From: Candidatus Omnitrophota bacterium
Lineage (GTDB): Bacteria; Omnitrophota; Gorgyraeia; Ghiorseimicrobiales; Ghiorseimicrobiaceae
DNA length: 64,000 bases
Direction of reading: 5' to 3'
Assembly (NCBI GenBank): GCA_030681595.1
Contig: JAUXSB010000009.1
Location: 24,265 to 88,264 of the forward strand
The translations under genes and the position numbers were made by a program. This document shows positions 7,315-60,136 of the stretch, one piece after another (within the stretch, counting starts at the first letter, position 1; each line of letters opens with the position of its first letter). Under the pieces are notes generated by a model that was not told where the DNA came from, did not search any database, and saw only the letters and a list, made by a program, of their open reading frames with translations.

Positions 7315-7419
7315 TAATAGCGTTTAGCAAATAGCGCAGAGCGGATAGTTTTTTAAAGGTTTTCTATGCGCTAAACGCTACACGCTACATGCTATACGCT
7401 AAATTGATATGGAGGGTTA

Positions 7420-16364: not shown

Positions 16365-17036
16365 ATGGTTAAAACGATAGTTTTTTTGCCGGGATGGAGT
16401 TTTAAGGCGCAAATTTGGGCAGGGCAAGAGAAATATTTCTCGGAATTAGGCTTTAGGACCATCCTGTGTGAATTAGAAGAGTTAGACGGCTACATTAAAA
16501 GTACCCGGCTAGAAGAAACCGTATTTATTGCCTGGTCGCTTGGTTGGTTTAGGTTATTGGATGTTTTGAAAAGCAGCTTTTCTTTGCCTTGCGCAATAGT
16601 AGGGGTGTCTGCCGCCATAAAATTTAAAAAATCGTTATTACGCCTCATGATACAGGAATTTAAAAAAGACCATAGGAAGGCATTATCGGATTTTGACAGT
16701 TGGTTATTTAGCCCTGAAGAAAAAGATTCGTCCGGTTTCGGTATTTTAAACGGGCTAATAGCGCAATCAAGAATAAATGATAAAGAAAGATTACTCAGGG
16801 ATTTATTGTTTCTTAAGGCACTAGACTTAGAAGGTTTCTTAACTACTTTTCGCCTGCCTGTTTTTTTAGTGTCAGGTAATAAAGATATAATTTGCCCTAT
16901 CGATGAAGCGATGCATTTAAAGCCGGTTTTACCCGATAGTCAGATAAAGGTAATGGAAGCAGGTCATATTCCTTTTTTGACAAGTAGCGCAGAATTTAAC
17001 CATTGTATCGGCTCATACCTACTGAGCCTCCGATAA
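16365..17036 (+). CDS. alpha/beta-hydrolase, pimeloyl-ACP methyl ester esterase (BioH/BioG-like)
   Basis: 223 aa, nucleophile elbow AWSLG. Lies between bioF and bioC. Confidence 0.7.
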   Translation: MVKTIVFLPGWSFKAQIWAGQEKYFSELGFRTILCELEELDGYIKSTRLEETVFIAWSLGWFRLLDVLKSSFSLPCAIVGVSAAIKFKKSLLRLMIQEFKKDHRKALSDFDSWLFSPEEKDSSGFGILNGLIAQSRINDKERLLRDLLFLKALDLEGFLTTFRLPVFLVSGNKDIICPIDEAMHLKPVLPDSQIKVMEAGHIPFLTSSAEFNHCIGSYLLSLR

Positions 17037-17340
17037 ATAATAGGCACATTGGCTGAGACGATTTGGTTTTGGCTATATTGAAAGCCAAACCACTGCTTTC
17101 TAGCTTTGTTGGAGCGAGACAAGGAACGAGGACGCCGGCGTAGTCGCAGTACTACGCCAAAGACGAGTGACGCAGGCGCAGCCCAAAAGCGGCCAGCCCC
17201 TTCGGGGAAGGCGCATCTTTGGCCTGCTACCGCGTTGCTCCTCCTCGAAGTAGTGCATAGACTACATCTTCGTCGTCGCGCCTTGCATCAGGCTCAAATC
17301 TTCGCCTTCCGATGTACCCATTATTTATCGGAGGCTCAGT
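17021..17340. mobile_element. MITE-like 320-bp insert bounded by perfect 20-bp terminal inverted repeats, between bioH and bioC
   Basis: 17021-17040 (actgagcctccgataaataa) is the exact reverse complement of 17321-17340. The interior is GC-rich, unlike the flanks, and contains a cccc-ttcg-gggg hairpin. The left TIR supplies the bioH stop codon. The interior shares an identical 25-mer with the hisS 3' end (50128-50152). The ORF 17106..17342 inside it is probably spurious. Confidence 0.5.
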
Positions 17341-17353
17341 GAAAGGTTTAGCG

Positions 17354-18130
17354 ATGATTTCTAAAGAATTAATCCGGAGGAATTTTTCAAATGTAGCGGC
17401 CAATTATGACGAGCACGCTGTTATACAAAAAAAATCCGGCTGCGAGCTCGTCGGACAATTACGAAAAGATAAAAATAATTATGGAGCGATTTTAGATATA
17501 GGCACGGGGACAGGCGGTTTATTGAGGGATTTGTCTTTGGTGTGCAGGCCCGCGTTAATATGCGGTCTGGACATTTCTTCCAATATGCTTATAAAAGCCA
17601 GGGCGTCTGAAAAGAGTAGCTTCTTTATACAGGCCGATGCAGAAAACATTCCTTTTAAAAAAAACACATTTGATTTAGTCGTTTCTAATTTGGCTTATCA
17701 GTGGCTTATGGATTTAGATAGCGCTTTTATTCAACTAGCAGGGATTTTAAAAGAAAGAGGGATGTTTTATTTTACTTCTTTTGGCCGCCGGACGCTTTCC
17801 GAACTAAGGGAATGTCTCAAGTCGGTAAAAGAAGCATCCGATTACAACATTTTTCCCGCAAAGGAAGCAATGCATTCCAAATTAAAAAATGCTGGGTTTG
17901 CGAATATTAAAATTATCTCGAAAATAGAGAAAGAGTTTTTTGTTGATTCTTTCAGCCTTATCCGCTGGTTAAAATATTCTGGGGCAAACAGGATAGGCGT
18001 TCGGTTTAATGGGCTTGAGGCGCGGGGTGTACTTAAAGAAATGGATAAATTATATTTAGAGAAATACCCGGCTGGCGGCGGCGTATTTGCCTCGTTTGAA
18101 AGATATATTGTTAAAGCAGAAAAAAGATGA
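17354..18130 (+). CDS. bioC: malonyl-ACP O-methyltransferase
   Basis: SAM-methyltransferase motif ILDIGTGTG. The ORF track starts at 17312 inside the right TIR. The Met at 17354 (MISKELIRRNF) aligns with typical BioC N-termini. Confidence 0.82.
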   Translation: MISKELIRRNFSNVAANYDEHAVIQKKSGCELVGQLRKDKNNYGAILDIGTGTGGLLRDLSLVCRPALICGLDISSNMLIKARASEKSSFFIQADAENIPFKKNTFDLVVSNLAYQWLMDLDSAFIQLAGILKERGMFYFTSFGRRTLSELRECLKSVKEASDYNIFPAKEAMHSKLKNAGFANIKIISKIEKEFFVDSFSLIRWLKYSGANRIGVRFNGLEARGVLKEMDKLYLEKYPAGGGVFASFERYIVKAEKR

Positions 18131-18200
18131 GCCCCGCCCTTCCTGAAATTTGATAAAGTAGGAAGGCATGGGCCAGAAAGAGAAAGGAAGAGCGGGGTGA
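18131..18200 (+). promoter_or_regulatory. repeated leader element copy 1: ccccgcccttcct … gaaaggaagagcggggtGa, embedding the SD and GTG start of bioD
   Basis: Near-identical ends to the element at 27995-28046. The cttcct tract can pair with either of two downstream aggaag tracts. The bioD GTG lies inside the 3' arm. Confidence 0.5.
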
Positions 18201-18862
18201 GAAAAGGTGTCTTTATCAGTGCAACCGGCACGGGCATAGGCAAGACTTTAATTAGTTCTTGTATCATACGTCTTTTAAGATTAAAGAAAATAGACTGCGG
18301 CGTAATGAAGCCCGTACAGTGCGGCGGAGACGATGCCCAGCGCCTGATCCGGCGCGCTGGAGTAAATGATCCCATAGGATTGGTAAGCCCTTTTTATTCT
18401 AAATACCCATATGCTCCGCTCGTTGCATTTAAGAAAGAGGGGATAAATTTTAATGCAGGCATAGTTATTTCAAGTTTTAAGGCTTTATCCAAGCGGCATA
18501 AATTTATGGTTGTAGAGGGCGCAGGAGGGATGCTCGTTCCTTTAGCGAATAATTATTTTATCGCGGATTTAGTTTTAGATTTAAAACTTCCGCTTATAAT
18601 TATTGCTTCAACAGCCTTAGGCACAATAAACCATACCCTGCTTACGGTTGAATCCGCCAAAAAGAGGAAAATAAAGATTCTAGGCATTATCTTTAATAAT
18701 TTATCTCTTAAGGCCGGAGTTGCAGAAAAGATAAATCCGGAAGTCATCCAGAGAATCTGCCGCCTGCCAATATTGGGCAATATCCCCTATATACAGCCAT
18801 GCATAAACAACAAAAATATCCTTAAGCTAGGCATAGACTTAGGCAGGATTTTACATGAGTAA
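18197..18862 (+). CDS. bioD: dethiobiotin synthetase
   Basis: GTG start. P-loop TGTGIGKT. Confidence 0.88.
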   Translation: MRKGVFISATGTGIGKTLISSCIIRLLRLKKIDCGVMKPVQCGGDDAQRLIRRAGVNDPIGLVSPFYSKYPYAPLVAFKKEGINFNAGIVISSFKALSKRHKFMVVEGAGGMLVPLANNYFIADLVLDLKLPLIIIASTALGTINHTLLTVESAKKRKIKILGIIFNNLSLKAGVAEKINPEVIQRICRLPILGNIPYIQPCINNKNILKLGIDLGRILHE

Positions 18863-27339: not shown

Positions 27340-27994
27340 TAAGAGTAACCAGAAACCAGTAACCAGTAACCAGAATTTAAAAAATAAGAGAATATTGATT
27401 ACGGCAGGCCCCACCTGGGTTCCTATAGATAGTGTTAGGGTAATTAGTAATATTGCTACAGGAGAGACCGGAATTATTTTAGCCCAAAAGTTACGCAAGG
27501 CAGGCTGTAAAGTTACGTTGTTACTTGGACCTGTGGGTAATTATCAGAATAAGAAAATACGGCTTTTGCGTTTTAGGTTTTTTGAAGAATTAAAGGCTAT
27601 ACTTAAGAGAGAATTATGCCGCGGTAGATACGATATTGTAATTCATTCAGCCGCGGTTTCTGACTATAAGCCGAAGAAATCTTTTAGGCGAAAGCTTGTA
27701 TCCAGCATTAAAAATCTTAAGATAGATTTAATCCCGGCAGAAAAAATCATCGATTTAATTAAGCGGACTGACAATTCTTTATTTTTGGCGGGTTTTAAAT
27801 TTGAGCCTGATATAAATAAGGAAAAACTTTTGGCGCAGGCAAGAGAATTAATGAAGCGTAGCGCTTGTGATTTGGTGGTAGCTAATACGCTTAGGGGCGG
27901 ACGTTATTCGGCATATTTAGTCAGAAGCGATAAAGTTCAAGGCCCGTTATATACTAAAAAAAAATTAGCAGAACAGTTGATAAAAAATCTATGA
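27329..27994 (+). CDS. coaB: phosphopantothenate-cysteine ligase (CoaB-only). Start uncertain.
   Basis: ITAGPTWVPIDSVRVISNIATGETG motif. The first ~25 codons contain the aaccagt heptamer tract and may be 5' leader. An alternative TTG start is near 27403. Confidence 0.75.
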   Translation: MDINKSNQKPVTSNQNLKNKRILITAGPTWVPIDSVRVISNIATGETGIILAQKLRKAGCKVTLLLGPVGNYQNKKIRLLRFRFFEELKAILKRELCRGRYDIVIHSAAVSDYKPKKSFRRKLVSSIKNLKIDLIPAEKIIDLIKRTDNSLFLAGFKFEPDINKEKLLAQARELMKRSACDLVVANTLRGGRYSAYLVRSDKVQGPLYTKKKLAEQLIKNL

Positions 27995-28046
27995 ACCCCG
28001 CCCTTCCTAAAAAGAGCGGGGGATCCGAGAAAGGAAGAGCGGGGTG
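27995..28046 (+). promoter_or_regulatory. repeated leader element copy 2, embedding the SD and GTG start of apgM
   Basis: accccgcccttcct…agagcggggg…gaaaggaagagcggggtGa. The block agagcgggg occurs twice, so ccccgccc has two alternative pairing partners. Confidence 0.5.
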
Positions 28047-29237
28047 AAATACATTGTTTTAGTCCCGGATGGCATGGCGGATTACCCGGTTGAGGACTTG
28101 GGTGGCAAGACTCCTCTCGAGGCCGCAAAAACACCTAATTTAGATTTTGTGGTAAAAGAAGGTTTGCTGGGCCGGGTAAAAACTGTCCCTTTGGGGCTTC
28201 CGCCGGCATCGGATGTGGCAAATTTATCTATTTTTGGTTACGACCCGCAGAAATATTATACCGGAAGAGGGCCGTTTGAAGCGGCGAATTTAGGCATAGC
28301 GCTTGAGCCGGGCGACATCGCTTTTAGGTGTAATCTAATCACCGCGGAAGAAGATGTGCTTACTGATTATAGCGCCGGACATATTTCTACAAAAGAAGCC
28401 GTAGCGTTGATGAGGCTTATTAACGAAAAGTTAGGCAGTGAAAATATTTTGTTTTATCCGGGTATGAGCTACCGCCATATTATGATAGCAAAAGGGGGAG
28501 TCAATAAAAAACTAGATAAAATAAGGTGTGTCCCGCCGCATGATATTATCGGAGAAAAGGTATCCAAGAACCTGCCTTGCGGTGAGAATGCGGAAATTTT
28601 GATTAAGCTGATGCAGGCATCAAGAGAAATATTGTCCAGCCACGAGGTAAATAATGTGCGCATCGACCTAAAGGAAAATCCTGCGAATATGATCTGGCTC
28701 TGGGGCCAGGGGGTAAAACCGGATATGCCGAAGTTTAGCGAAAAGTTCGGAATTTCAGGCTCGGTAATTTCAGCGGTAGATTTAATTAAGGGTATTGGCA
28801 GGATTGCTGGGCTTGAAGTTATTGATGTCCCCGGCGCCACCGGCTATTATGATACGGATTACTTTGGCAAGGCCAAATACGCGCTTAAATCTTTAGACAC
28901 AAAGGATTTTGTCTATGTGCATATTGAGGCTCCCGATGAGGCAGGGCATAATGGCGACCTAAGAGAAAAGATTGCCGCGATAGAAAGATTTGATCAGTTG
29001 GTGGTTGGGACTATCTTAGATGTTTTAAAAGAGAAAGAGGATTTCCGCTTGCTTATACTGCCAGACCATGCTACGCCTTTATCTAAGCGTACGCATACGC
29101 CAGACGATGTAGGTTTTGTGATTTATGGCTCTGGTATTGTTTCTAACGGCTATTCTGTATTTACTGAGGAGGAGGCAAAGAAAAGCAGCCTGTATATTAC
29201 AGAAGGGCATAAATTGATGGAATACTTTATAAGATAA
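28044..29237 (+). CDS. apgM: 2,3-bisphosphoglycerate-independent phosphoglycerate mutase, archaeal-type (ApgM)
   Basis: 397 aa alkaline-phosphatase superfamily. The N-terminus LVPDGMADYP is typical of ApgM. Confidence 0.85.
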   Translation: MKYIVLVPDGMADYPVEDLGGKTPLEAAKTPNLDFVVKEGLLGRVKTVPLGLPPASDVANLSIFGYDPQKYYTGRGPFEAANLGIALEPGDIAFRCNLITAEEDVLTDYSAGHISTKEAVALMRLINEKLGSENILFYPGMSYRHIMIAKGGVNKKLDKIRCVPPHDIIGEKVSKNLPCGENAEILIKLMQASREILSSHEVNNVRIDLKENPANMIWLWGQGVKPDMPKFSEKFGISGSVISAVDLIKGIGRIAGLEVIDVPGATGYYDTDYFGKAKYALKSLDTKDFVYVHIEAPDEAGHNGDLREKIAAIERFDQLVVGTILDVLKEKEDFRLLILPDHATPLSKRTHTPDDVGFVIYGSGIVSNGYSVFTEEEAKKSSLYITEGHKLMEYFIR

Positions 29238-32132: not shown

Positions 32133-34940
32133 ATGAACGAAATTCCCTCCCGATATAACCCCAAAGAAGTTGAAGAGAAATGGTATAAGTTTTGGGAAGA
32201 AAATAAGCTATTTTCCGCAAAGCCCACTCCTAATAAGAAACCTTTCTGTATAGTCATACCTCCGCCTAATGTGACCGGAATTTTACACATGGGGCATGCC
32301 TTGAATAATTTCATACAGGATATTTTAACCCGTTACCAGCGAATGAAAGGTAGTGAGGCGCTCTGGATACCTGGGACAGACCATGCCGGGATTGCCACGC
32401 AGAACGTGGTGGAGAAGAAATTGGCTAAAGAAGGTAAAAAACGGCAGGACTTAGGGCGCGATGAATTTTTAAAGGAAGTCTGGAAATGGCGCGAGGAATA
32501 CGGTTCAACTATTATCAAGCAGCTTAAGAAATTAGGCGCATCCTGTGATTGGGAGCGTACTCGTTTTACTATGGATGAGGGCTACAGTGATGCAGTGCTG
32601 GAAGTATTTATTCATTTATATAATAAAGGCCTCATTTATCGGGGAAAGCGTATTATTAATTGGTGCCCGCGTTGTTCAACCGCGCTTAGCGATGAAGAAG
32701 CTCCTTATAAGGAATTGGAAGGGCAGCTTTATTATATACGGTATCCAATTAAAGTCACCAGTCATACCCTTGCGGGCACAGGCCAGTCATACCCTTGCGG
32801 GCACAGGCCAGTCACCAGAAAAAAACAGAAAACTATCAATTACGTAGTAGTGGCGACGACGCGGCCGGAGACGATGTTGGGCGATACGGCGGTAGCGGTT
32901 AATCCCAAAGACAAGCGCTATAAAGACCTGATAGGAAAGACTGTTATTCTTCCTTTGGTTGAGCGGGAAATTAAAATTATCGCTGATAATTTTGTTGATC
33001 CGAAATTCGGTACAGGCGCGGTTAAGGTTACCCCTGCCCATGATCCTAACGATTACCAGATGGGGCTGCGGCATAATCTAGAGTTTATTAATATTATGCA
33101 GGTCGATGGTGTGTTGAATTCTAATGCCGGCGAATACGATGGTATGGATAGGTTTGAGGCACGCCAGGCAATAGTTAACGATTTAAAAGAGCGTAAGCTG
33201 CTGGAGAAAATAGAACCGCATATGCATTCCGTAGGGCATTGCTATCGTTGTTCAACCGTAATTGAGCCATATTTGTCCAACCAGTGGTTTGTGAAAATGA
33301 AGCCTTTATCCAAACTCGCGTTGGAAGCGGTGAAAAAAGGCGAAATTAAATTTTATCCTAAGCGTTGGACAAAGGTTTATTTAAACTGGATGGAAAATAT
33401 TCAGGATTGGTGTATCTCGCGGCAGATTTGGTGGGGGCATAGGATGCCTGTTTATTATTGTAAAAATTGCTACAAGCCTCAAGCTTCAGGCTCCAAGCTT
33501 CAAACTGAAAAAGAAAAGCCTGCAGCAGATAAGGGTATCTTTGTTTCAAAGAATAAGCCGGAGAAATGCCCGGATTGCGGCTCAAGCGATATTTATCAAG
33601 ACGAAGATGTGTTGGATACTTGGTTTTCTTCCTGGCTCTGGCCGTTTGCGACGTTTGGCTGGCCGTTTACAAGCTACAAGCCTCAAGCTGCAAGCGACAA
33701 GCAAAAAAGCCTGCAGCAGGACGAACTTAATTACTTCTACCCTACTTCGGTATTAGTGACTGCTCAGGAAATAATCTTTTTCTGGGTGGCGCGCATGATT
33801 ATGGCGGGCTTTGAATTTATGGGTAAAAAGCCGTTTTCCGATGTTTATATCCATGGTACGGTGCGCGACGATACCGGTAAAAAGATGTCTAAGTCTCTGG
33901 GTAATATTATTGACCCGCTTGAAATTATAAATGAGTTTGGATCAGACGCGCTTCGTTTCAGTATTATTTCCCTGACCAGCGTAGGCCAGGATGTCTTTTT
34001 ATCTAGGAATAAATTTGAATACGGCAGGAATTTCGCCAATAAAGTCTGGAATGCCTCGCGCTATACCATAATGAACCTTAAGCCAGAAGAAATAAATGTG
34101 GATTTGTGCGCCTATTCTAAAGGTATATCCGGGCTTGCCGAGAAGTGGATTTTAAGCCGGTTTTACAGCGCTTTAGATAGAATAGAGAAGGCGCTTAAGC
34201 AGTATAAAATTAACGAGGCGGCTAAGGTAATGTATGAATTTTTCTGGCATAATTTCTGTGATTGGTACCTGGAATTTTCTAAGTTAACATTGGGGAGGCG
34301 CCAAACGCAGGTTGTGCTTTATAAGGTATTGGAAAAATCCCTGCGTGTTATGCATCCGTTCTTGCCGCATCTGACCGAAGAAATATGGCATAACCTGCCG
34401 GGTACAAAATCGTCCATAATGACGGAAAGCTGGCCGCATTTGCAGAAACAGTTTATCTCAAAAACAACGGATAAACAGATGCAGGTTTTGATAGATTTAA
34501 TTTCCCTGATAAGGAATATCCGTTCTGAATGGCACATATTGGAACACGCTGAAATAGAATGTATTATTAAGACTACAGATAAGGCTTCAAAAAAACTCAT
34601 ACAGGAAAACGATATTTATCTAAAAAAATTAGCAAAGCTAGGCCAGATAAAAATCGTAGAGAAAGCCGAAGATGTTTCCATGTGCGCATCCGGCGTGGCA
34701 GGAAAACTCGATTTTTATATACCACTTGAAAAACTTATTGATTTGACAAAAGAAAAAGAGCGCCTGTCTAAACAAATACAGTCATTTGAGGCGCAGTTTA
34801 AGGCTTTGAGAGAAAGATTAAAGAATAAGGAATTTCTTAAAAAAGCGCCCAACGAAGTGGTGGAAAAAGAAAAAATCAGGTTAGAAGAGTTATCGAAATT
34901 AATCAAGCGTATTGGCGATAATTTAAAAGTATTGGGTTAA
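32133..34940 (+). CDS. valS: valine--tRNA ligase, carrying in-frame repeat insertions
   Basis: 935 aa. HIGH (PPNVTGILHMGHA), KMSKS, editing domain, and a C-terminal coiled coil. Confidence 0.93.
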   Translation: MNEIPSRYNPKEVEEKWYKFWEENKLFSAKPTPNKKPFCIVIPPPNVTGILHMGHALNNFIQDILTRYQRMKGSEALWIPGTDHAGIATQNVVEKKLAKEGKKRQDLGRDEFLKEVWKWREEYGSTIIKQLKKLGASCDWERTRFTMDEGYSDAVLEVFIHLYNKGLIYRGKRIINWCPRCSTALSDEEAPYKELEGQLYYIRYPIKVTSHTLAGTGQSYPCGHRPVTRKKQKTINYVVVATTRPETMLGDTAVAVNPKDKRYKDLIGKTVILPLVEREIKIIADNFVDPKFGTGAVKVTPAHDPNDYQMGLRHNLEFINIMQVDGVLNSNAGEYDGMDRFEARQAIVNDLKERKLLEKIEPHMHSVGHCYRCSTVIEPYLSNQWFVKMKPLSKLALEAVKKGEIKFYPKRWTKVYLNWMENIQDWCISRQIWWGHRMPVYYCKNCYKPQASGSKLQTEKEKPAADKGIFVSKNKPEKCPDCGSSDIYQDEDVLDTWFSSWLWPFATFGWPFTSYKPQAASDKQKSLQQDELNYFYPTSVLVTAQEIIFFWVARMIMAGFEFMGKKPFSDVYIHGTVRDDTGKKMSKSLGNIIDPLEIINEFGSDALRFSIISLTSVGQDVFLSRNKFEYGRNFANKVWNASRYTIMNLKPEEINVDLCAYSKGISGLAEKWILSRFYSALDRIEKALKQYKINEAAKVMYEFFWHNFCDWYLEFSKLTLGRRQTQVVLYKVLEKSLRVMHPFLPHLTEEIWHNLPGTKSSIMTESWPHLQKQFISKTTDKQMQVLIDLISLIRNIRSEWHILEHAEIECIIKTTDKASKKLIQENDIYLKKLAKLGQIKIVEKAEDVSMCASGVAGKLDFYIPLEKLIDLTKEKERLSKQIQSFEAQFKALRERLKNKEFLKKAPNEVVEKEKIRLEELSKLIKRIGDNLKVLG
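32755..32818 (+). repeat. in-frame repeat insertion A: 25-bp unit tcatacccttgcgggcacaggccag in tandem x2, flanked by tcaccag direct repeats
   Basis: Read directly. The two copies are translated in different frames (SHTLAGTGQ, then SYPCGHRPV). Net insert 57 bp. The same unit recurs in nadC. Confidence 0.85.
33468..33533 (+). repeat. in-frame repeat insertion B copy 1 (heptamer-based: five NNCAAGC units plus aaaagcctgcagcag)
   Basis: ctacaagcctcaagct…aagcctgcagcag recurs 200 bp downstream. It sits between the two Cys pairs of the valS zinc knuckle. Confidence 0.7.
33668..33725 (+). repeat. in-frame repeat insertion B copy 2
   Basis: acaagc tacaagc ctcaagc tgcaagc gacaagc aaaaaagcctgcagcagg. 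The 3' block is read in a different frame from copy 1. Confidence 0.7.
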
Positions 34941-34943
34941 ATT

Positions 34944-35843
34944 ATGCAGAAAAAAGAAATTATCAATATCGTAAAAAATGCCCTTAGGGAAGATGCCGCG
35001 GATAGAGATATTACTACGCAGGCGCTTATTCCTCTGGATTTAAGGGCAGCGGCAAGGATTATTACCAAAGAAAATGGGGTAGTTTGCGGATTAAGCATTG
35101 CGGAACTCGCCTTTAAGCTGTTGGATAAAAATATCAAGTTTAAGGCAAAAGTCAAAGATGGTGCGGTAATAAAAAATGGTAGTTGTTTGGCAGAGATTTA
35201 CGGTAGGGCACGGCCAATTTTATCTGCAGAACGTACCGCACTCAATTTCTTAGGGAATCTTTGTGGAATAGCCGCGTTTACCCGTCAATTCGTAGAAAAA
35301 GTTAAACCGTATAAAACTAAGATTCTGGATACCAGAAAAACTACGCCGAATTTAAGAATACTGGAAAAATACGCGGTGCGTTGCGGCGGCGGGTTCAACT
35401 ACCGTTTTGATTTAAGCGAACAAATATTGGTTAAAGATAACCACATAAGAATCACAAATGACAAATTACAAATGGCAAATTTAAAATATGTCGTTGAGGC
35501 CGTACGAAAAAACGTGAAGGGTAAAAAAATTGAGATTGAGGTAGATAATTTAAGGCAGTTCAAAGAAGTAATTGCTGTGGCGCCCGATATTATCATGCTG
35601 GATAATTTTAATCTGTCTGATATCAAAAAAGCGGTAAAGATTAAAAATCGGTCACCAGTCATACCCTTGCGGGCACAGGCCAGCCACCGGTCGCCGGTAA
35701 AACTAGAAGCATCTGGTGGAATAACTTTAAGAAATATTAAGAAAGTTGCTGCAACCGGCGTAGATTTTATCTCTATCGGCGCGCTCACCCATTCAGTTAA
35801 ATCCTTGGATTTATCTTTAGAAATCACTAAAAAATCTGCGTAA
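34944..35843 (+). CDS. nadC: nicotinate-nucleotide pyrophosphorylase (carboxylating), carrying an in-frame repeat insertion
   Basis: 299 aa QPRTase. The usual C-terminal …LEASGGI motif is interrupted by the insert. Confidence 0.88.
   Translation: MQKKEIINIVKNALREDAADRDITTQALIPLDLRAAARIITKENGVVCGLSIAELAFKLLDKNIKFKAKVKDGAVIKNGSCLAEIYGRARPILSAERTALNFLGNLCGIAAFTRQFVEKVKPYKTKILDTRKTTPNLRILEKYAVRCGGGFNYRFDLSEQILVKDNHIRITNDKLQMANLKYVVEAVRKNVKGKKIEIEVDNLRQFKEVIAVAPDIIMLDNFNLSDIKKAVKIKNRSPVIPLRAQASHRSPVKLEASGGITLRNIKKVAATGVDFISIGALTHSVKSLDLSLEITKKSA
35651..35690 (+). repeat. in-frame insertion of repeat A (single 25-bp unit, flanks tcaccag / ccaccgg) in nadC
   Basis: Identical 25-mer to the valS copies, translated in the third possible frame (VIPLRAQAS). 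Net ~39 bp. Confidence 0.85.
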
Positions 35844-40163: not shown

Positions 40164-40175
40164 CATTAAAAAATA

Positions 40176-40251
40176 AGTTGGTTAGTTGGTTAGTTGGTTA
40201 GTTGGTTAGGTTTAACGAACCAACAAACTATCAAACTAACAAACTAAAACC
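40176..40251. repeat. (agttggtt)x4-5 tandem octamer followed by its inverted complement, between groES and groEL
   Basis: Read directly. Forms a long AT-rich hairpin. No spacers, so not CRISPR. Confidence 0.8.
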
Positions 40252-40266
40252 GACGAGCGTAAGTGA

Positions 40267-43275: not shown

Positions 43276-44817
43276 GTGCCTAAAAACACTATACTAATTT
43301 TGGATTTTGGTTCGCAATACACACAGTTGATTGCGCGCCGTGTGCGCGAGAATAACGTTTTTAGTTTAATCGTGCCTTATAATATTAAGGCCGCTGAAAT
43401 TAAGAAGCTCAGCCCCCGGGGCTTAATTCTTTCCGGGGGCCCTGCAAGCGTATATGCCAAGGTTTCTCCCCAGCCGGATAAAAATATATATAAATTAGGT
43501 ATTCCCATTTTAGGTATTTGTTATGGTTTGCAGGTGAGCGCGCAGATTTTAGGCGGCAGGGTTAAATTTAGCAAACAGCGTGAATACGGCCGGGTTGAGT
43601 TTTTTGCGGATGACCATAAAGACCTTTTTAATGGCGTATCCGGTAACTTTACCTGCTGGATGAGTCATGGAGATTATTTAACCGGGCTTCCCAAAGGTTT
43701 TAGCTGTATTGGGCACACTTTAAATACTCCGCTAGCTGCAATTGCCGATAGGAAGCGGCGTATATTCGGGCTGCAGTTCCATCCGGAAGTAGCACATACA
43801 CAAAAGGGCGATAAGATTTTAGCTAACTTTTTGTTTAAGGTATGCGGCTGTTCTTCGGATTGGGTGATGGAATCATTTATAAAAGAAGCGATAGATAAAA
43901 TCAGAAAGGCTGTCGGAAAAAAGAAGGTTATTTGTGGCCTATCCGGAGGGGTGGATTCTTCGGTTGTTGCTTTACTTATCCATAAGGCTATCGGTAACCA
44001 ACTGCGATGTATTTTTATTGATAACGGCCTATTGCGTAAAGACGAGCCGGAGCAGGTAAGAAAAACTTTTAAGGAGCATTTTAAGATAAATTTGGATTAT
44101 GTTGTGGCAGGCGCGCGGTTTTTAAAGAAACTCAAGGGCGTAACTGACCCGGAAGAAAAAAGAAAAATTATCGGCAATGAATTCGTTAAGGTTTTTGAAG
44201 AAGAGGCGGTTAAATTTAAAGGCGCGGAGTTTTTAGCGCAGGGTACGCTTTATCCGGATGTGATTGAGTCTGTCCCGGCGTTCGGGGGGCCAACCGCAAA
44301 AATTAAGACACATCACAATGTCGGCGGGCTTCCTTTAAATATGAAACTTAAACTCATTGAGCCGTTGCGCGAATTATTCAAGGATGAAGTGCGTTTAATT
44401 GGTAAACAACTAGGCCTGCCCGTCAACATTATAAGCCGTCAGCCTTTTCCGGGTCCGGGGCTTGCGATACGCATTATCGGCGAAGTTACCGAAGAACGCC
44501 TCGCGATTGTAAGGGAAGCTGATGAGCGGCTCCTTGAAGAGATAAAAAAATCAGCGATTTATCCGGATATCTGGCAGTCGTTCGCCGTGCTTTTACCGGT
44601 AAAAAGCGTAGGCGTGATGGGCGATGAAAGGACTTATGAGAATGTTGTCGCTGTAAGATGCGTTTCCAGTGTTGACGGCATGACTGCCGACTGGGTAAAA
44701 GTGCCTTATGAAATATTAGAGAAGATTTCCAACAAGATTATTAACGAAGTCAAAGGTATTAATCGCGTTACTTACGATATAAGCTCTAAACCTCCGGCAA
44801 CTATTGAGTGGGAATAA
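43276..44817 (+). CDS. guaA: GMP synthase (glutamine-hydrolysing)
   Basis: 513 aa. GATase-1 (catalytic Cys in GICYG) plus ATP-PPase SGGVDSSV. Confidence 0.93.
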
Positions 44818-44822
44818 TGATG

Positions 44823-44903
44823 AAGTTATAAGTGGTGAGTTATGAGTTATAAATTTAAAAAAGTAACTTAAACTTGTAACTTATAATTTATAACTCATAA
44901 CTT
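44823..44903. repeat. ~80-bp AT-rich near-perfect palindrome (gagttatgagttataaatt … aatttataactcataactt)
   Basis: 19-bp arms with nested inner arms. The same agttatgagttat / ataacttgtaact motif occurs at 6353-6387. Confidence 0.8.
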
Positions 44904-44909
44904 CCAATA

Positions 44910-48879: not shown

Positions 48880-50181
48880 ATGTCATTTGTTTTTCGGGCT
48901 GTGCGCGGAACGAAAGATATTTTGCCTGATGAGGCAGAATATTTGCGCCATATTGAAGTTAAGGCGCGGGAGATTTCTTCTCTTTATGGATATAGAGAGG
49001 TTATTACTCCTGTGATAGAAAACCGCGATTTATTCGTCCGTTCCCTGGGAAAGGACACGGAGGTTATCGGAAAGCAGATGTTTATCATCGAGCGGGGAGA
49101 TGATATTATCGCCCTGCGTCCCGAAGCAACTGCCGGAGTAATCCGCGCTTATTTGGAAAATAATTTAAATAGCCGCAACTTGTTAGCCAAGTTTTATTAT
49201 TTCGGGCCGATGTTCAGGGCGGAACGTCCGCAAAAAGGGCGCCTGCGGCAGTTTCACCATCTGGGGGTTGAAGCAGTAGGTTCATCCAGCCCCTTGTTAG
49301 ATGTGGAAATTATTTCTTTGGCAGAGGTAATCTTAAAAAATATCGGCATAAGCGGTTTTAAAATAAAAATCAATACTTTGGGGTGTGTCGAAGATAAAAA
49401 AGCATTTGCTGAAAAGCTGCGCGTTATTTTAGGGGGGAAAATTTCTGATTTTTGCCAGGATTGCCGGGAAAGGTTTGATCGTAATGTCTTTCGGCTCCTT
49501 GACTGTAAAAACAGCTCCTGTAAAAATATTATCTTAGGCCTTAATATTAAGCGTACGGATTATCTTTGCGGGGAATGTTTAGAACATTTTGATACGGTTT
49601 TAGCTGGATTAAAGAATATAGGCGTAAACTATGAAGAGAGCGCGCATTTAGTGCGGGGCTTAGATTATTATACGCGCACGGTTTTTGAGATTACGCATTC
49701 AGAATTAGGCGCTCAGGATGCCGTAGGTGCCGGAGGGAGATACGATAATTTGGTGGAGGAGTTGGGCGGAGAGCCGACGGCTGCCATAGGTTTTGCTTTT
49801 GGAGTCGAGAGGCTGTTGTTAGTATCAAGTGCCAAGTGCCAAGTGCCAAGTAAAGATTTAGTTTTTTTGATTGCTTTAGGCAAGGGGGCGGAGGCAGCGA
49901 GCGTTAAGCTGTTGTATAGCCTGCGCCAAAACGGGATAAAGGCAGATACGCTTTATGAAGAGAAATCTCTTAAAGGGGCAATGCGTAGAGCTAATGATTT
50001 AGGCGCAAAATATGTTTTGATTTTAGGCGAAAACGAGTTAAAGAAAAACGTGGTAGTTTTTAAGGATATGGCTTCGGGGGAGCAAAGAGAGATAAAGACA
50101 GAAGAAGTAATAGCCGAACTTATGGCTTTGGCTATATTGAAAGCCAAACCATTGCCTTATCGGCTTAAAGGTCAAATATAG
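48880..50181 (+). CDS. hisS: histidine--tRNA ligase
   Basis: 433 aa class-II aaRS with a HisRS anticodon-binding C-terminus. Contains a (caagtgc)x3 tract (49827-49853) and a repeat-derived 3' end. Confidence 0.92.
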   Translation: MSFVFRAVRGTKDILPDEAEYLRHIEVKAREISSLYGYREVITPVIENRDLFVRSLGKDTEVIGKQMFIIERGDDIIALRPEATAGVIRAYLENNLNSRNLLAKFYYFGPMFRAERPQKGRLRQFHHLGVEAVGSSSPLLDVEIISLAEVILKNIGISGFKIKINTLGCVEDKKAFAEKLRVILGGKISDFCQDCRERFDRNVFRLLDCKNSSCKNIILGLNIKRTDYLCGECLEHFDTVLAGLKNIGVNYEESAHLVRGLDYYTRTVFEITHSELGAQDAVGAGGRYDNLVEELGGEPTAAIGFAFGVERLLLVSSAKCQVPSKDLVFLIALGKGAEAASVKLLYSLRQNGIKADTLYEEKSLKGAMRRANDLGAKYVLILGENELKKNVVVFKDMASGEQREIKTEEVIAELMALAILKAKPLPYRLKGQI

Positions 50182-54495: not shown

Positions 54496-54901
54496 AGTAG
54501 CCGTTAATCAGAAAAAAATAAGAGACGTTATAAAACTGATTTTGTATAAAGAGCACTCTAGTGCAGGAGATATTTCGGTTACAGTCACTACCGATAATAA
54601 AATCCGAAAATTTAACCGCGCATACCTGAATAAAGATTTGCCCACCGATGTATTATCGTTTAGTTTCTTAGGTAAAAAGCCAGAAAAAATAATTCCGGTT
54701 TCCATATTAGGCGATATCATAGTTTCGGCTGATACGGCAGTTTCTAATGCGGTAATTTATAAAACTACTCCAAAAGAAGAGCTTTATTTATATGTTATAC
54801 ATGGCCTGCTGCATTTATTAGGCTACAATGATATTACGCCGGGCAAGCGTGCGGTGATGAAAAAGAAAGAGCTGCATTATCTTCGAAGGATTAAATTTTA
54901 G
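54434..54901 (+). CDS. ybeY: rRNA maturation endoribonuclease YbeY. Start uncertain.
   Basis: HGLLHLLGYND metal-binding motif and TDVLSFSF. The ORF track starts at 54395 and overlaps the upstream gene. The internal Met at 54434 or a GTG near 54464 is more likely. Confidence 0.82.
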   Translation: MCVLPTPRKTVRIAIINQQRKVAVNQKKIRDVIKLILYKEHSSAGDISVTVTTDNKIRKFNRAYLNKDLPTDVLSFSFLGKKPEKIIPVSILGDIIVSADTAVSNAVIYKTTPKEELYLYVIHGLLHLLGYNDITPGKRAVMKKKELHYLRRIKF

Positions 54902-54968
54902 CGGTTAGTGTTTAGCGGATAGAACCGGCATTTTCTACACGCTATACGCTATACGCTGTACGCTAACG

Positions 54969-55703
54969 ATGGCTATCTGTAAAACCGAAGCAATAGTTAT
55001 TAGGACATTTGATTTCCGCGAAACTAGCATTATTGCGGAGTTTTTTACGCGGGATTTTGGCCGGCTTAAAGGGATTCTAAAGGGGATAAGGAAAGACCGT
55101 AAAAAATTCGCATCAACCCTAGAGCCGTTTTCGCTTAATGAGATTATATTTTATCAAAGCCGCAACAGCGAATTACACCTGGTGTCCGGCTGCGATTTAG
55201 AAGATGGTTTTTTAAATGTACGTTCCGACCTTAAAAAGATACACCTGGCCAGCTTTCTGATGGAATTGGTTTCCGCGCTTTTTGCCCCGGAAGATAAAAA
55301 CGAAGAAGCTTTTGAAGTTATTTTATCCTCTTTAGAAGATTTATCCAGCGTTAATGACCCGGAAAAGATTATCAGTATTGCCCAAATAAAATTGCTGCGC
55401 CTTTCCGGGTTTAAGCCTCATTTTGATTCCTGTGTTTTATGCAATAATGATATTTCAGGAGAAGCAAAATTCAGTTCTAAGTTCGGAGGCCTGCTTTGTC
55501 CGAAATGCGCTTATCGTGATTCTCAAATACACCCGGTGCTAAGAGGGACAATCGCGTCAATTAAGCATATTGAAAGGTCCGGTTGGTCTGATACCTTAAG
55601 GTTAAATTTAGCCCATCCGATAAAAGCAGAACTGAAGAATATGCTGGATAAGTTTTTAATGTTTCATTTAGAAAAAAGATTAAAAACTGCGAGGTTTTTA
55701 TGA
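54969..55703 (+). CDS. recO: DNA repair protein RecO
   Basis: 244 aa. OB fold plus a Cys4 zinc motif (CVLCN…CPKC). Confidence 0.85.
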   Translation: MAICKTEAIVIRTFDFRETSIIAEFFTRDFGRLKGILKGIRKDRKKFASTLEPFSLNEIIFYQSRNSELHLVSGCDLEDGFLNVRSDLKKIHLASFLMELVSALFAPEDKNEEAFEVILSSLEDLSSVNDPEKIISIAQIKLLRLSGFKPHFDSCVLCNNDISGEAKFSSKFGGLLCPKCAYRDSQIHPVLRGTIASIKHIERSGWSDTLRLNLAHPIKAELKNMLDKFLMFHLEKRLKTARFL

Positions 55704-57440: not shown

Positions 57441-59147
57441 ATGTTAAACAAGCAAATTGCAGAAATTTTTAGGAAGACCGCGCAAATTCTGGAAATAAAA
57501 GGCGATAACCCTTTTAAAATCCGCGCCTATCAGCGCGCCGCCGATAGTTTAGAGAATGTTAACGAAGATTTAGAAGATATTGAGCGCCAGGGCCGCCTTT
57601 GCCAAATCCCCGGCATAGGCCATGATTTAGCGCAGATGATTAGCGAATTTATCGGCTATGGCGCGATTAAGTCCTATGACGAACTAAAGCAAACTATTCC
57701 AGAGGGGTTACTCGAACTTTTATCCATTCCCGGGGTCGGCCCGAAAACCGCCAAACTGCTTTATGATCAATTAAAGATTTCAGATATTCAGACGTTAGAA
57801 AAATACGCCAAAGAAGGCAGGCTGCAGGCACTTCCGGGATTTAAGGTAAAGCATGAAGAAAATATCCTACGCGGGATAGAGCTGGTTAAGAAGGGGATGG
57901 AACGGATGGACTTAGGCACTGCCTATCGTAGCGCGCAGAAATTTGTCGGTATCTTAAACAAACATCCTGCGGTAAAACGGATAGAAGCAGGCGGAAGTTT
58001 ACGCCGGATGAAAGAGACAGTGCGCGATATTGATATTTTAGTTGCTTCAAATAAACCCAGAGAAATAATGGATGATTTTGTAAAAATTAAGGAAGTAAAA
58101 AGCGTTTTAGGCCAAGGCCCGACCAAATCTTCAGTGGTGACTAAAGAGGGGGTGCAGGTTGATTTACGCGTTGTGGATGAAAAAAGTTTTGGCTCAGCCC
58201 TAATGTACTTTACCGGCTCAAAGGCGCATAATATACGTTTAAGGCAAGTAGCAATTAAAAAGGGTTTAAAATTAAGTGAATACGGTGTATTCAAAAAAGA
58301 AAAAAATATCGCCGCCGGCTTTTCTGAAAAAGAAATTTATAGATTACTGGGCATGCCTTATATTGAGCCGGAATTAAGGGAAGATTCCGGAGAAATAGAG
58401 GCGGCAGCCAAGCAAAAATTACCGGATTTGATAAAATTAGAAGATATTAAGGGCGACTTGCATATGCATTCGACCTATTCCGACGGTAATTATTCTATGG
58501 AAGATATGGCGCTGGCGGCAGAGAAAAAAGGTTATGAATATATAGCATTTACCGACCATTCCATATCGCTTAAAGTAGCAAACGGGTTAGATTTGCACGC
58601 ACTTGCGAAAAAACGCGCGGAAATCGAGAAATTAAACAAGGAACTAAAAATTAAAATTTTATTCGGTACAGAGGTGGAATTGGATGCCGACGGCAAGACC
58701 GATTACTCCGATAAAGTGCTTTCTGAATTTGATATTGTAATCGGTGCAATTCATTCGGGATTCCGGCAGTCAAAACAAAGAGTCACCAAGCGTTTGATCA
58801 AGGCCTGCCTTAATAGGCATATTGATATGATCGCTCATCCGACAGGCCGGCTATGGACGGTACGCGAGGCATACGAGGTGGATTTTACGGCATTTTTTAA
58901 GGCGGCAGGCGACACCGGGACATTCCTGGAAATAAGCTCATTCCCTACGCGCCTGGACTTAAATGATGTCAATGCCCGCCGGGCAAAGGAGGCTGGGGTG
59001 GGGCTTGCGATTTCCACGGATTCGCATCATATTGAGCAGTTGGATTATGTAAAGTTCGGCGTAGCTACCGCGCGCCGCGCCTGGCTTACTAAAAAAGATG
59101 TAGTAAATACGTTGTCGTTAAAAGAATTGATGAAGGTGAAGAAGTGA
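57441..59147 (+). CDS. DNA polymerase X family with a C-terminal PHP phosphoesterase domain
   Basis: Pol beta-like HhH, fingers/palm (GSLRRMKETVRDIDILV) and a PHP domain (HMHSTYSDG). Confidence 0.88.
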   Translation: MLNKQIAEIFRKTAQILEIKGDNPFKIRAYQRAADSLENVNEDLEDIERQGRLCQIPGIGHDLAQMISEFIGYGAIKSYDELKQTIPEGLLELLSIPGVGPKTAKLLYDQLKISDIQTLEKYAKEGRLQALPGFKVKHEENILRGIELVKKGMERMDLGTAYRSAQKFVGILNKHPAVKRIEAGGSLRRMKETVRDIDILVASNKPREIMDDFVKIKEVKSVLGQGPTKSSVVTKEGVQVDLRVVDEKSFGSALMYFTGSKAHNIRLRQVAIKKGLKLSEYGVFKKEKNIAAGFSEKEIYRLLGMPYIEPELREDSGEIEAAAKQKLPDLIKLEDIKGDLHMHSTYSDGNYSMEDMALAAEKKGYEYIAFTDHSISLKVANGLDLHALAKKRAEIEKLNKELKIKILFGTEVELDADGKTDYSDKVLSEFDIVIGAIHSGFRQSKQRVTKRLIKACLNRHIDMIAHPTGRLWTVREAYEVDFTAFFKAAGDTGTFLEISSFPTRLDLNDVNARRAKEAGVGLAISTDSHHIEQLDYVKFGVATARRAWLTKKDVVNTLSLKELMKVKK

Positions 59148-60136
59148 TGGGAAAATATTTTAAAGAAGGGAGAAGAGAGAAGGGAGAAGGGCGAAAGATT
59201 TTTTATTTTTTTCTATCTTCTATTCTCTATCTTCTATTTTTCGGATTTTACGGCTGTGCCGTAAAGCCCTATCATAGCCAGACACGCTTGATAATGGGCA
59301 CCGTGATGGAGATAGTTGCTCAGGATGAGAAAGCGATTGAAGCGGCATTTAAGGAAATCGAGCATATTGACGATTTAATGAGCAATTATAAGCCGGAAAG
59401 CGAAATTTCGCGCCTGAATAAAGACGGCCAGGTTAAAGCATCGCCTGAGACATTGGCGGTAGTGAAAGCGTCAAAAAAGCTTTTCCGGTTTAGCGAAGGG
59501 GCTTTTGACATAACCGTAGGGCCGTTAATAAAATTATGGAATGTTAAGGGGAATATGCAAAAAGATGCTTCTTTAATAAGGATACCCGGGGAGGGAAAAA
59601 TAAAAGAAGCATTATCTTGCGTGGGAACAAATTTTATTGATATAGACGAAAAAAACAGTATAATACGGTTAAAGAAGAAAAGCGTTATTTTAGATTTAGG
59701 GGCAATTGCTGCCGGTTACGCTGTGGATAGGGCAATCGCCGTATTAAAACAAAACGGCGTAAGAAATGCTTTGGTTAATGCCGGCGGCGAAATATATTGT
59801 TTAGGAAAAAAGGGTTTTTCCTACTGGAAAGTAGGTTTGCAAAATCCGCGTAAAAAGGATGGCGTAGCAGATATAGTTAAGCTGCGGAATAGGGCGGTAG
59901 CGACTTCTGGCGACTACGAGCAGTTTTTTGTATATGAAAACAAGCGCTACGCGCATATAATTGACCCGCGTACCGGATATCCGGTAGATAACGGTATAAT
60001 CTCGGTAAGTGTTTTTGCCGATGATTGCACAACCGCCGACGCTTTAGGCACAGCGATTTTCGTTTTAGGAAAAGAAAAAGGCGAGCAGTTAGCAAAGCGG
60101 TTTAAGAACGTGGAAGTAAAGATAATTACAAAATAA
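59144..60136 (+). CDS. apbE: FAD:protein FMN transferase (ApbE family) lipoprotein
   Basis: ApbE motifs (DITVGPLIKLW, ATSGDYEQ…HIIDPRTG). N-terminal TM/lipobox GC. Confidence 0.85.
   Translation: MMGKYFKEGRREKGEGRKIFYFFLSSILYLLFFGFYGCAVKPYHSQTRLIMGTVMEIVAQDEKAIEAAFKEIEHIDDLMSNYKPESEISRLNKDGQVKASPETLAVVKASKKLFRFSEGAFDITVGPLIKLWNVKGNMQKDASLIRIPGEGKIKEALSCVGTNFIDIDEKNSIIRLKKKSVILDLGAIAAGYAVDRAIAVLKQNGVRNALVNAGGEIYCLGKKGFSYWKVGLQNPRKKDGVADIVKLRNRAVATSGDYEQFFVYENKRYAHIIDPRTGYPVDNGIISVSVFADDCTTADALGTAIFVLGKEKGEQLAKRFKNVEVKIITK

Follow-up and report, generated by a model that had tools for sequence, protein, structure and literature searches.

Rickettsia palindromic elements (RPEs; Ogata et al. 2000 and 2002) are described in two later sources (PMC10969869; Di Nocera et al. 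2013, PMC3733652) as palindromes of about 100-150 bp that are restricted to Rickettsia and encode a conserved peptide each. Repetitive extragenic palindromic sequences (REPs) are small GC-rich stem-loops with a stem of 5-13 bp and a GTAG or CGTC tag, present at high copy number and for the most part extragenic; some of them are intragenic and encode 20-30 residues, and such copies are known from Opitutus, Rickettsia and Thauera (PMC3733652). The REPIN/RAYT system (Bertels & Rainey 2011, PMC3116915), in which the repeats flank a cognate Y1 (HUH) transposase gene, was taken as a further comparison. Small dispersed repeats (SDRs; Elhai et al. 2008) appear in passages of PMC4390886, PMC5861425 and PMC3116915 as elements of Nostocaceae only, about 20-27 nt long and too small to encode anything; passages of the first two place SDR5 (about 24 nt) precisely between bases 3 and 4 of the 8-nt repeat HIP1. 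Here we describe a 25-nt repeat that lies in frame in two housekeeping genes, valS and nadC, of a Candidatus Omnitrophota metagenome-assembled genome (MAG), together with the 7-nt tandem arrays in which it is nested. The stretch of DNA that was analyzed (64 kb) is called the window throughout; L0xx denotes fetched nucleotide loci and P0xxx homologous proteins.

Cyanobacterial STRR sequences are heptanucleotide repeats, and the GC clusters or double-hairpin elements of fungal and algal mitochondria are short GC-rich hairpin modules scattered over AT-richer genomes, some of which lie in coding regions, and show signs of mobility; we know of no enzyme for these clusters. Repetitive hairpin elements related to GC clusters have been described (PMC2800124). 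Long simple sequence repeats (SSRs) with a heptanucleotide unit (Mrazek et al. 2007) are presented in passages of PMC4679880 as the dominant period among long repeats, with many units per genome and mostly intergenic positions; polymerase slippage is proposed there as their cause, and genes are expected to exclude periods that are not a multiple of three. An example is TAACTGA, which is repeated in Beggiatoaceae and cyanobacteria (PMC4679880). The repeat of the window resembles RPEs, intragenic REPs and cyanobacterial SDRs in behavior and is a member of none of these families.

A compound unit in valS and nadC

The exact 25-mer TCATACCCTTGCGGGCACAGGCCAG occurs twice in tandem in valS, which encodes valine-tRNA ligase (ValRS), and once in the next gene, nadC, which encodes quinolinate phosphoribosyltransferase (NadC); all three copies are on the + strand (Table 1). 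The two proteins are identical to NCBI entries MDP1853155.1 (ValRS) and MDP1853156.1 (NadC), both from a Candidatus Omnitrophota MAG. The original prediction, made from the letters of the window, had given these positions and had stated that the three copies are read in three different frames, and both statements were verified. Tandem Repeats Finder (TRF) reported a period of 25, 2.3 copies and 100% matches for the valS repeat. Further matches with up to three mismatches were not found in the window, the 25-mer did not occur in any of 100 shuffled sequences, and no copies are expected by chance. Peptides predicted from the open reading frames (ORFs) for the insert regions include VTSHTLAGTGQSYPCGHRPVTR and NRSPVIPLR.

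According to our best explanation, to which as a whole we assign a probability of about 0.6, the 25-mer is a compound unit of one GTCACCA heptamer and a nested 18-nt GC-rich mini-hairpin module, M1, and M1 is, in Omnitrophota and at least one Anaerolineaceae MAG, a dispersed and non-autonomous repeat of very small size. Written in heptamer register, the 25-mer consists of GTCA, M1 (TACCCTTGCGGGCACAGG; opposite strand CCTGTGCCCGCAAGGGTA) and CCA, with the insertion point GTCA^CCA and 18 + 7 = 25 nt. The reverse complement of M1 reads CCC-GCAA-GGG, with a GNNA loop. The junction GTCA^C is fixed in the three copies of the window, in two copies of L004 and in L011 and L015 (loci of other genomes, see below), and the orientation of M1 relative to the GTCAC.AG unit is always one and the same. 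M1 has no stop codon in any of its six frames, and with its length of 18 nt it therefore never breaks the reading frame.

Because 25 is not a multiple of 3, successive copies rotate through the frames, and any repeat of such a length that survives inside a gene has to be open in all three. That none of the three frames contains a stop, as had been noticed, is true, but as a signal of adaptation it fails: about 52% of random 25-mers of the same composition and 46% of shuffles of the unit (P about 0.5) are likewise open. The TCACCAG and CCACCGG flanks (the latter at 35684-35690) are also real. They had been taken for padding that brings two insertions, of 57 and 39 bp, to multiples of 3; instead they are units of heptamer arrays that are already present in the same loops of relatives, and the real added unit is 18 nt. 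The genes were thus not clean before the insertion, and the module entered a cassette that was already filled with repeats and hypervariable. A target-site duplication by the flanks was not demonstrated; flanking direct repeats are confounded with the array.

A palindrome or hairpin in the 25-mer itself was rejected, since DNA and RNA folds were no better than those of shuffles. For DNA of the valS and nadC segments on both strands, the z-scores against shuffles were +0.62, -0.82, -1.92 and -0.44, and for the 25-mer alone -0.04. RNA folding of the cassette at site 1 of the window valS revealed no remaining hairpin (z +0.5); judging from the counterparts in L021 and L022, the stretch directly downstream is probably the decayed second arm of an older element (Table 1). 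No Rfam family was matched in the window, around both genes (E <= 1), or in 11 loci, except for tRNAs.

Heptamer arrays at the same loops of relatives

Wherever the window carries a repeat, relatives carry short-period tandem arrays, mostly of another unit. The syntenic valS-nadC loci compared were L020 (ValRS 85% identical), L021 (79%) and L022 and L023 (about 60%); L024 is a nadC locus with about 75% nucleotide identity to the window. L021 and L024 stem from Hainich aquifer data sets. At valS site 1, which follows YYIRYP, L020 has (AAATCCG)x4.6, L021 has GTTAGCC-type units and then (AAACAGGC)x4.6, and L022 has (GTCACCA)x4-spacer-(ACAGGCG)x4. At nadC site A, which precedes KLEASGG, about four heptamers are present in all relatives (GTTACCC GTTAGCC GTTACCC ATTACCC in L020, (TTCTTCG TGCCTCG)x2 in L021, GTCACCA units in L024). 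The NadC loop from KAV to LEASG comprises 30 aa in the window, 24 in L021 and 23 in L020, i.e., the window is longer by 18 nt, exactly one M1, than L021 and by 21 nt than L020. At valS site 2 the window is shorter than L021 by 21 nt, exactly three heptamers, and in L020 sites 1 and 2 alike are occupied by AAATCCG arrays instead. Perfect arrays are frequent although the proteins are 15-30% diverged between genomes. They are also hot spots of insertion and deletion: in six syntenic genes compared between the window and L020/L021, all internal indels except one, in coaX, were at the array sites of valS and nadC, and ask, cimA and uvrB had none.

Among the 120 closest ValRS the peptides encoded by M1 were found only in the protein of the window itself, and likewise among the 120 closest NadC, which indicates that M1 arrived recently. 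Close relatives carry different modules at the same array position. L024 shares with the window the array of nadC site A and 34 nt upstream of it, but after GTCA it continues with another GC-rich hairpin, CACGACCCACGCCTCAGCGCGGGTGCCCCGA; at nadC site B it has the array of L021 plus a 21-nt palindromic module, CCTGCCTGTCCGGCAGGCAGG. The modules at both nadC sites of L024 thus identify the nesting of small GC-rich hairpins in heptamer arrays as a recurrent and recent change. A palindromic 'PAGRQ' module (CCTGCCTGYCCGGCAGGCAGG-like) was observed at 1062-1082 of L024, in the ValRS P0012, P0072, P0087 and P0109 and in the NadC P0123 and P0198; it is nested in heptamer arrays of numerous Omnitrophota proteins and seems to be a counterpart of M1 with a wider distribution.

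The sites are located in tolerant loops. In the alignment with ValRS of T. thermophilus (1GAX) the three valS sites are pure gaps, with 29 residues in the window against 3 in 1GAX at site 1 and about 15 extra residues each at sites 2 and 3. Compared with the T. thermophilus enzyme 1X1O, nadC site A is an insertion of 12-14 residues between a helix and the strand VPLEASG. In an AlphaFold2 model of NadC (110 sequences; mean pLDDT 92.5) the insert follows helix 224-236 and precedes strand 253-257, and its confidence is the lowest of the protein (pLDDT about 61). In these comparisons the insertion sites are loops. In other genomes the elements lie in linkers or just outside Pfam domains. Judging from the intact frames, the inserts are probably translated, and the resulting loop peptides may be neutral.

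The arrays are not limited to these two genes. TRF assigned a period of 7 or 14 to 24 of its 38 rows in the window, in which hisS is a third housekeeping gene with a heptamer array (Table 1). In intergenic DNA, an array, a loop and a roughly complementary array follow one another (e.g., at 7318-7408, 40172-40252 and 44810-44905), and such pairs fold into long hairpins whose stems consist of steps of 2-3 bp and are mismatched once every 7 nt (z = -3.2, -4.1); over all periodic hairpins folded, z was -3.2 to -4.2. The same architecture is present inside valS, at sites 1, 2 and 3 of L022 (z about -4) and at site 1 of L021 (z -3.5). Further intergenic periodic hairpins of 7-8-nt units were observed at 54895-54970 and 59160-59240 of the window. 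The intergenic hairpins may be terminators or mRNA-end structures.

In 120 ValRS of Omnitrophota the loop lengths were 11-47 aa (site 1), 14-59 (site 2), 8-55 (site 3) and 15-51 (site 4), and NadC showed the same variability in two loops. The ValRS loop peptides recur across lineages and sites, and each is a translated repeat family (KSQIPNPK / KSEIRNPK; STVHSPQSTV...MDYGLWTMD; KLQASGSKLQ...PAACSLQ; GQSPSGTVP; CLPAGRQA; others); VTSHQSPVTS...TGDRRQATGD corresponds to GTCACCA and its partner arm. Peptides with a 7-residue period were found in 44 of the 120 ValRS and 29 of the 120 NadC (about 5 and 3 in shuffles), whereas periods other than 7 occurred in similar background numbers. Repeat-like loop peptides of other kinds (VILSEAKNL...LRPQNDK, EGLRMT, SSLRGA..DEAIS) were noted in the ValRS P0009 (970 aa), P0007, P0035 and P0074. 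In metagenomes, peptides like VILSEAKNL, EGLRMT and SSLRGA usually turn up in spurious 'hypothetical proteins'; in ValRS, an essential enzyme, they are in frame.

M1 in other genomes and further repeats of the window

The species-representative genome collection contained the core of the unit, the exact 20-mer CATACCCTTGCGGGCACAGG, in 12 stretches, and 7 metagenome contigs contained it as well; exact M1 is present in one Anaerolineaceae MAG and, besides the window, in at least four MAGs of Omnitrophota. All core matches in the databases belong to Omnitrophota, Anaerolineae or unassigned metagenome contigs. About nine of the Omnitrophota places with the exact core are in long ORFs and two to three are intergenic. 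Two matches, one in a methyltransferase-like ORF of a genome with 56% GC (L003) and the only one in the viral collection (a 528-aa ORF of a contig with 60% GC), are probably due to chance or to unrelated coding sequence; by estimate, about one match would be expected at random in the genome collection. An exhaustive search with the valS insert against 1.84 billion protein representatives yielded only three unrelated repetitive proteins.

A copy of the whole cassette is in L004 (Omnitrophota DAOWIN01), where 67 nt are identical to window 32752-32818 in the layout unit, 25-mer, 25-mer, unit. This cassette lies inside the ORF of a TonB-dependent receptor, directly upstream of the Plug domain, and the L004 locus outside the 67 nt has no resemblance to the window. 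In L011 (JAGVOQ01) two copies of M1 are placed in a giant multidomain ORF between GTCACAAG or GTCRTCA units; in L015 M1 lies between GTCACAAG units, and L012 has the same kind of flank. L001 carries three to four modules in tandem.

In the Omnitrophota MAG JAHJHM01 and in metagenome contigs that match it, an 84-nt element (L002, L006, L008, L009, L010 (JAHJHM01), L013, L014 and L019) contains M1. The element is bounded by TAAG/ATAAG-like direct repeats and is read in the same frame, as KTPPSKVSGGSTCARLCPQGYEGIPxDK, in at least five different ORFs, among them GatB, a type II/IV secretion ATPase and a PAS histidine kinase. Compared with Aquifex GatB (3H0L), the insert adds about 27 residues to the GatB of JAHJHM, in the linker before the tail domain. 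The ATPase also contains a 48-nt short form that lacks the 36-nt (2 x 18) M1 block, so that M1 is an optional insert of the 84-nt repeat, too. The short form is situated between two CxxC pairs of the ATPase, mirroring valS site 2, which is situated between the Cys pairs of the zinc knuckle.

In the Anaerolineaceae MAG (L005, L007) exact and variant copies of M1 are extragenic and flank a two-component operon on both sides. In variant copies ACCC....GGGCAC is conserved, and most differences fall on the middle two positions of the four-base loop (GCAA, GCGA, GAGA, GTAA, GTCA and GTTA on the reverse strand), with the CCC/GGG stem kept. The general idea of the original prediction, a dispersed repeat that is tolerated in frame in essential genes, is therefore upheld by the cassette in the L004 receptor and by the core in other Omnitrophota, including GatB and the secretion ATPase: the core of the 25-mer does occur elsewhere.

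Table 1. Features of valS, nadC and hisS in the window, with the evidence for each
Feature	Position	Strand	Reading or evidence
valS (valine-tRNA ligase), host gene, 935 aa	32133..34940	+	intact ORF; HMGH and KMSKS present; alignment with 1GAX; protein 100% match
Heptamer unit TCACCAG (GTCACCA family), 5' side of valS cassette	32755..32761	+	perfect x4 arrays at this loop in L022; present in L023
Compound 25-nt unit, copy 1 (M1 at 32765-32782, nested at GTCA^CCA)	32762..32786	+	read SHTLAGTGQ
Compound 25-nt unit, copy 2 (M1 at 32790-32807)	32787..32811	+	read SYPCGHRP
Heptamer unit TCACCAG, 3' side of valS cassette	32812..32818	+	stretch 32752-32818 100% identical to L004 6707-6773
Putative decayed second arm of old valS site-1 element (AAAAAAACAGAAAAC...)	32819..32842	+	cf. 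(AAACAGGC)x4 in L021, (ACAGGCG)x4 in L022
valS site 2, between two Cys pairs of zinc knuckle: array CTWCAAG..., spacer, CCTGCAG	33469..33527	+	same element in L021 and L022
valS site 3: TACAAGC x5	33668..33702	+	read YKPQAASDKQ; TRF and comparison with relatives
nadC (quinolinate phosphoribosyltransferase), host gene, 299 aa	34944..35843	+	intact ORF, next after valS
nadC site B: ACAAATG / ACAAATT array	35450..35487	+	orthologous site GCCACAA/GCCGCAA in L021
Heptamer unit TCACCAG of nadC site A	35652..35658	+	same array and same 34 upstream nt in L024
Compound 25-nt unit, copy 3 (M1 at 35662-35679)	35659..35683	+	read VIPLRAQAS
Two degenerate heptamers, CCACCGG and TCGCCGG, older part of nadC site A array	35684..35697	+	comparison with relatives
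hisS array CAAGTGC x3.7, perfect, without M1 (hisS ORF 48880-50181)	49826..49851	+	read SSAKCQVPSK; linker before anticodon-binding domain

Other repeats were observed in the window. A 320-bp element at 17021-17340 resembles a miniature inverted-repeat transposable element (MITE), with 32-nt terminal inverted repeats that are 91% complementary; a non-syntenic copy (85% identical) is found at 12636-12913 of L021, between uvrB and coaX, and 36 nt of the element (17064-17099) are present again at 50123-50158, where they overlap the hisS ORF at its 3' end. Another repeat, of about 90 nt and with the complementary arms CCCCGCCCTTCC...GGAAGAGCGGGG, has two copies, both at gene boundaries (18120-18213 and 27984-28060), and no Rfam match. 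A stretch of 185 nt between nadC and uvrB of L021 (9706-9888) is 75% identical, in inverted orientation, to 57291-57108 of the window, upstream of an ORF at 57441, and may be another dispersed element. All plausible ORFs of at least 120 aa in the window are on the + strand, and throughout the 64 kb the GC skew has positive values (0.05-0.26); contrary to the skew, the heptamer units that are translated are C-rich and G-poor on the + strand. The orientation of elements relative to GC skew is consistent within an element type and opposite between types, and it is confounded with the gene strand.

Relation to described systems and origin

The comparison of the repeat with RPEs, drawn by the original prediction, holds for behavior, i.e., for a repeat that is present in frame in unrelated functional housekeeping genes and adds a peptide at sites compatible with the fold (intact ORFs, loops), and fails for size, palindromy and host. 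The unit of 25 nt is 5-6 times shorter than an RPE, M1 has 18 nt and the whole valS cassette 64 nt; a palindrome or stable hairpin is lacking (z +0.62 to -1.92 for DNA, +0.5 for RNA of the valS cassette); and the host belongs to Candidatus Omnitrophota, a distinction that rests on descriptions of RPEs and not on direct comparison with the RPE-1 to RPE-10 consensus sequences. Also unlike RPEs, the 25-mer is read in three frames and in both orientations and is nested in 7-nt arrays that turn over between genomes. The nearest counterparts of RPEs are the complete array elements of Omnitrophota (about 70-85 nt, hairpin-forming) and the 84-nt element in GatB of JAHJHM.

The likeness to REPs lies in small GC-rich dispersed stem-loops that are often clustered or dimeric and sometimes inside genes, and in the extragenic position of the L005/L007 copies beside an operon. 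Neither strand of M1, however, has the GTAG or CGTC tag (a CGTC-GCCC..GGGC hairpin that adjoins M1 in L005/L007 is a separate unit), the stem of M1 has three G-C pairs, most Omnitrophota copies seen are intragenic, and the copy number looks low. A RAYT gene was not seen nearby among the ORFs inspected, which were those around the L005 copies. MITEs have terminal inverted repeats, a target-site duplication and a length of 70-300 bp; M1 and the 25-mer lack terminal inverted repeats, and their flanking repeats are confounded with the array.

In logic, SDR5 within HIP1 is the closest analogy to M1 at GTCA^CCA. Insofar as SDRs are described in the sources cited above, they share with the 25-nt compound unit its size, its dispersal over varied contexts and its nesting at a fixed point of a short repeat; the host is Omnitrophota and not Nostocaceae, the host repeat is a tandem 7-nt array and not a dispersed 8-nt palindrome, and the distinction from SDR1-8 is one of description only. 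The flanks and the neighboring arrays agree with heptanucleotide SSRs, with perfect arrays at orthologous sites in L020, L021 and L022, whereas the 25-mer itself has a period of 25. Unlike such SSRs, the arrays are in frame in essential genes, at positions conserved in the phylum, and are often paired into periodic hairpins. Mitochondrial GC clusters differ in being organellar, in their sequences and in not being tied to heptamer arrays. The loci are not phase-variable contingency loci, either, in which length changes of a repeat turn a dispensable gene, usually a surface or restriction-modification gene, on and off: the hosts valS, nadC and hisS are housekeeping genes in which a frameshift would presumably be lethal rather than adaptive. 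For Omnitrophota, the literature searched yielded no account of nested modules, periodic hairpins or heptamer arrays that are translated. The selfish in-frame repeat of the original prediction is thus right in spirit and wrong in anatomy.

As to origin, we propose that the arrays are older residents of tolerant surface loops in valS, nadC and many other genes, where they would change by slippage and by gain or loss of units, with only frame-preserving states persisting, and would be homogenized or replaced quickly within one genome. Arrays of the same family that are scattered over a genome would swap sequence by template switching or gene conversion, guided by their common heptamers, and the exchange would carry along whatever is nested between two units. 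M1 would have entered two GTCACCA arrays of this genome recently, most likely copied from another M1-bearing array or, alternatively, inserted at GTCA^CCA by an enzyme; the valS copy would then have been duplicated by slippage and the inserts translated as neutral loop peptides. The direction and the mechanism of the copying are inferred. Template switching or conversion would explain why valS, nadC and the L004 receptor hold one and the same cassette between the same flanks, and also the flanks that changed in concert (CAAG-type in L011, L012 and L015, CCAG-type in the window and L004). Several observations weigh against this proposal. The M1 hairpin has only three G-C pairs, which G-U pairs could extend in antisense-strand RNA, its folding energy is not significant, and covariation is lacking. 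Translation of the inserts is an assumption from intact frames, and the three copies in 64 kb are confined to two adjacent genes. Neither a mobilizing enzyme, for which the candidates beside the L005 copies were inspected, nor a copying event was observed. Homology-guided copying alone can account neither for M1 without arrays (JAHJHM, L016 and the Anaerolineaceae L005/L007) nor for its exact conservation across phyla. Finally, M1 is flanked in arrays by direct repeats of 6-8 nt, which might be true target-site duplications and would in that case favor transposition over templated copying.

Classical transposition, which we consider unlikely, would make the 18-nt module or the 25-nt unit a miniature element that is moved by a trans-acting transposase with staggered cuts of 7-8 nt, TCACCAG and CCAGTCA being the target-site duplications; repeated insertion and excision could then produce heptamer arrays as footprints. 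In agreement with this, the direct repeats at M1 differ by site (CCAGTCA in the window and L004, CAAGGTCA and TCAGCC in L011), the array period of 7-8 nt equals their length, the direct repeats that bound the 84-nt JAHJHM element reach 13 nt in L009, and the MITE with its L021 copy indicates that transposases are active in the lineage. However, any insert in a tandem array automatically gains flanking direct repeats, relatives without M1 already have arrays, and M1 has no direct repeats in JAHJHM (GGGTCTA^TCCCC), L016 and L003. Moreover, different sites of one genome share a heptamer, which is unexpected for footprints of local targets; 18 nt, without terminal inverted repeats, is far below any known transposed element; and no transposase was found beside the copies (the ORFs inspected, around L005, encode a two-component system; those of the window were not scanned for Y1 transposases). 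Still less probable is a selected function, be it as an mRNA structure for translation or decay, as a protein- or DNA-binding site or as a useful flexible or charged loop. Array cassettes are indeed retained in the same loops among Omnitrophota ValRS and NadC that share 50-85% identity, complete elements form strong periodic hairpins both within and between genes, M1 variants keep the stem and the G..A loop, and the exact 20-mer is conserved across lineages. The sequence of the unit and the encoded peptide nevertheless vary freely among close relatives, some orthologues lack any insert (P0013, P0053), the site-1 hairpin of the window has decayed, the mRNA of valS and nadC has the non-GNRA strand of M1, and M1 is found in both orientations relative to genes; the insert is of low model confidence and away from catalytic elements, and Rfam offers no family for it.

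That the copies arose by a purely local event, a tandem duplication in valS and a gene conversion into nadC 2.9 kb away without dispersal, is very improbable. The restriction of the three window copies to two adjacent genes suits such an event, and the same heptamer family at both sites would have helped conversion; the identical 67-nt cassette in an unrelated gene of another MAG and the core in several other Omnitrophota MAGs and other contexts have already largely refuted it. We give hardly any credence to an artefact of assembly or sequencing. The source is a MAG, and assemblers can collapse or expand repeats, but the 50-nt tandem repeat is shorter than a read, both ORFs remain in frame, the two-copy cassette was assembled independently in DAOWIN01, and the core is present in assemblies of unrelated studies. 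To our knowledge, the 25-mer and M1 match no common adapter.

A bolder and doubtful extension of our explanation is that the arrays and modules form a still-active, phylum-wide class of translated palindromic elements with 7-nt periodicity and swappable nested GC-hairpin modules (18, 21 and about 31 nt), located in fixed loops of essential proteins and in intergenic DNA and continually rewritten by dedicated machinery, with M1 crossing phyla. One candidate would then be an enzyme specific for single-stranded DNA or hairpins and working in a 7-nt register, with the arrays as its footprints. If true, this class would be a new kind of mobile DNA and not a variant of REPs, RPEs or SDRs.

In-frame small repeats in essential genes are a classic oddity known mainly from Rickettsia; here they are found on a much larger scale and in an unusual form in Omnitrophota, an uncultured phylum of free-living or episymbiotic bacteria. 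Arrays of 7 nt ought to be barred from coding DNA, since the slip of a single unit shifts the frame. In ValRS, NadC and HisRS they are nonetheless kept in the same loops, with sequences that are replaced from one close relative to the next, and they host even smaller, interchangeable-looking hairpin modules; the same structures are found between genes. There is a substantial possibility that the surrounding array system merits description in its own right. For genome analysis, the inserts inflate and diversify protein lengths and thereby affect alignments and orthology, yield spurious 'hypothetical' peptides in metagenome annotation, and break assemblies; they also provide a natural map of where aminoacyl-tRNA synthetases tolerate insertions. 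A dedicated mechanism that writes the arrays, if there is one, would amount to genome editing of a new type; otherwise, the arrays would be a clean natural experiment on slippage, conversion and reading-frame selection.

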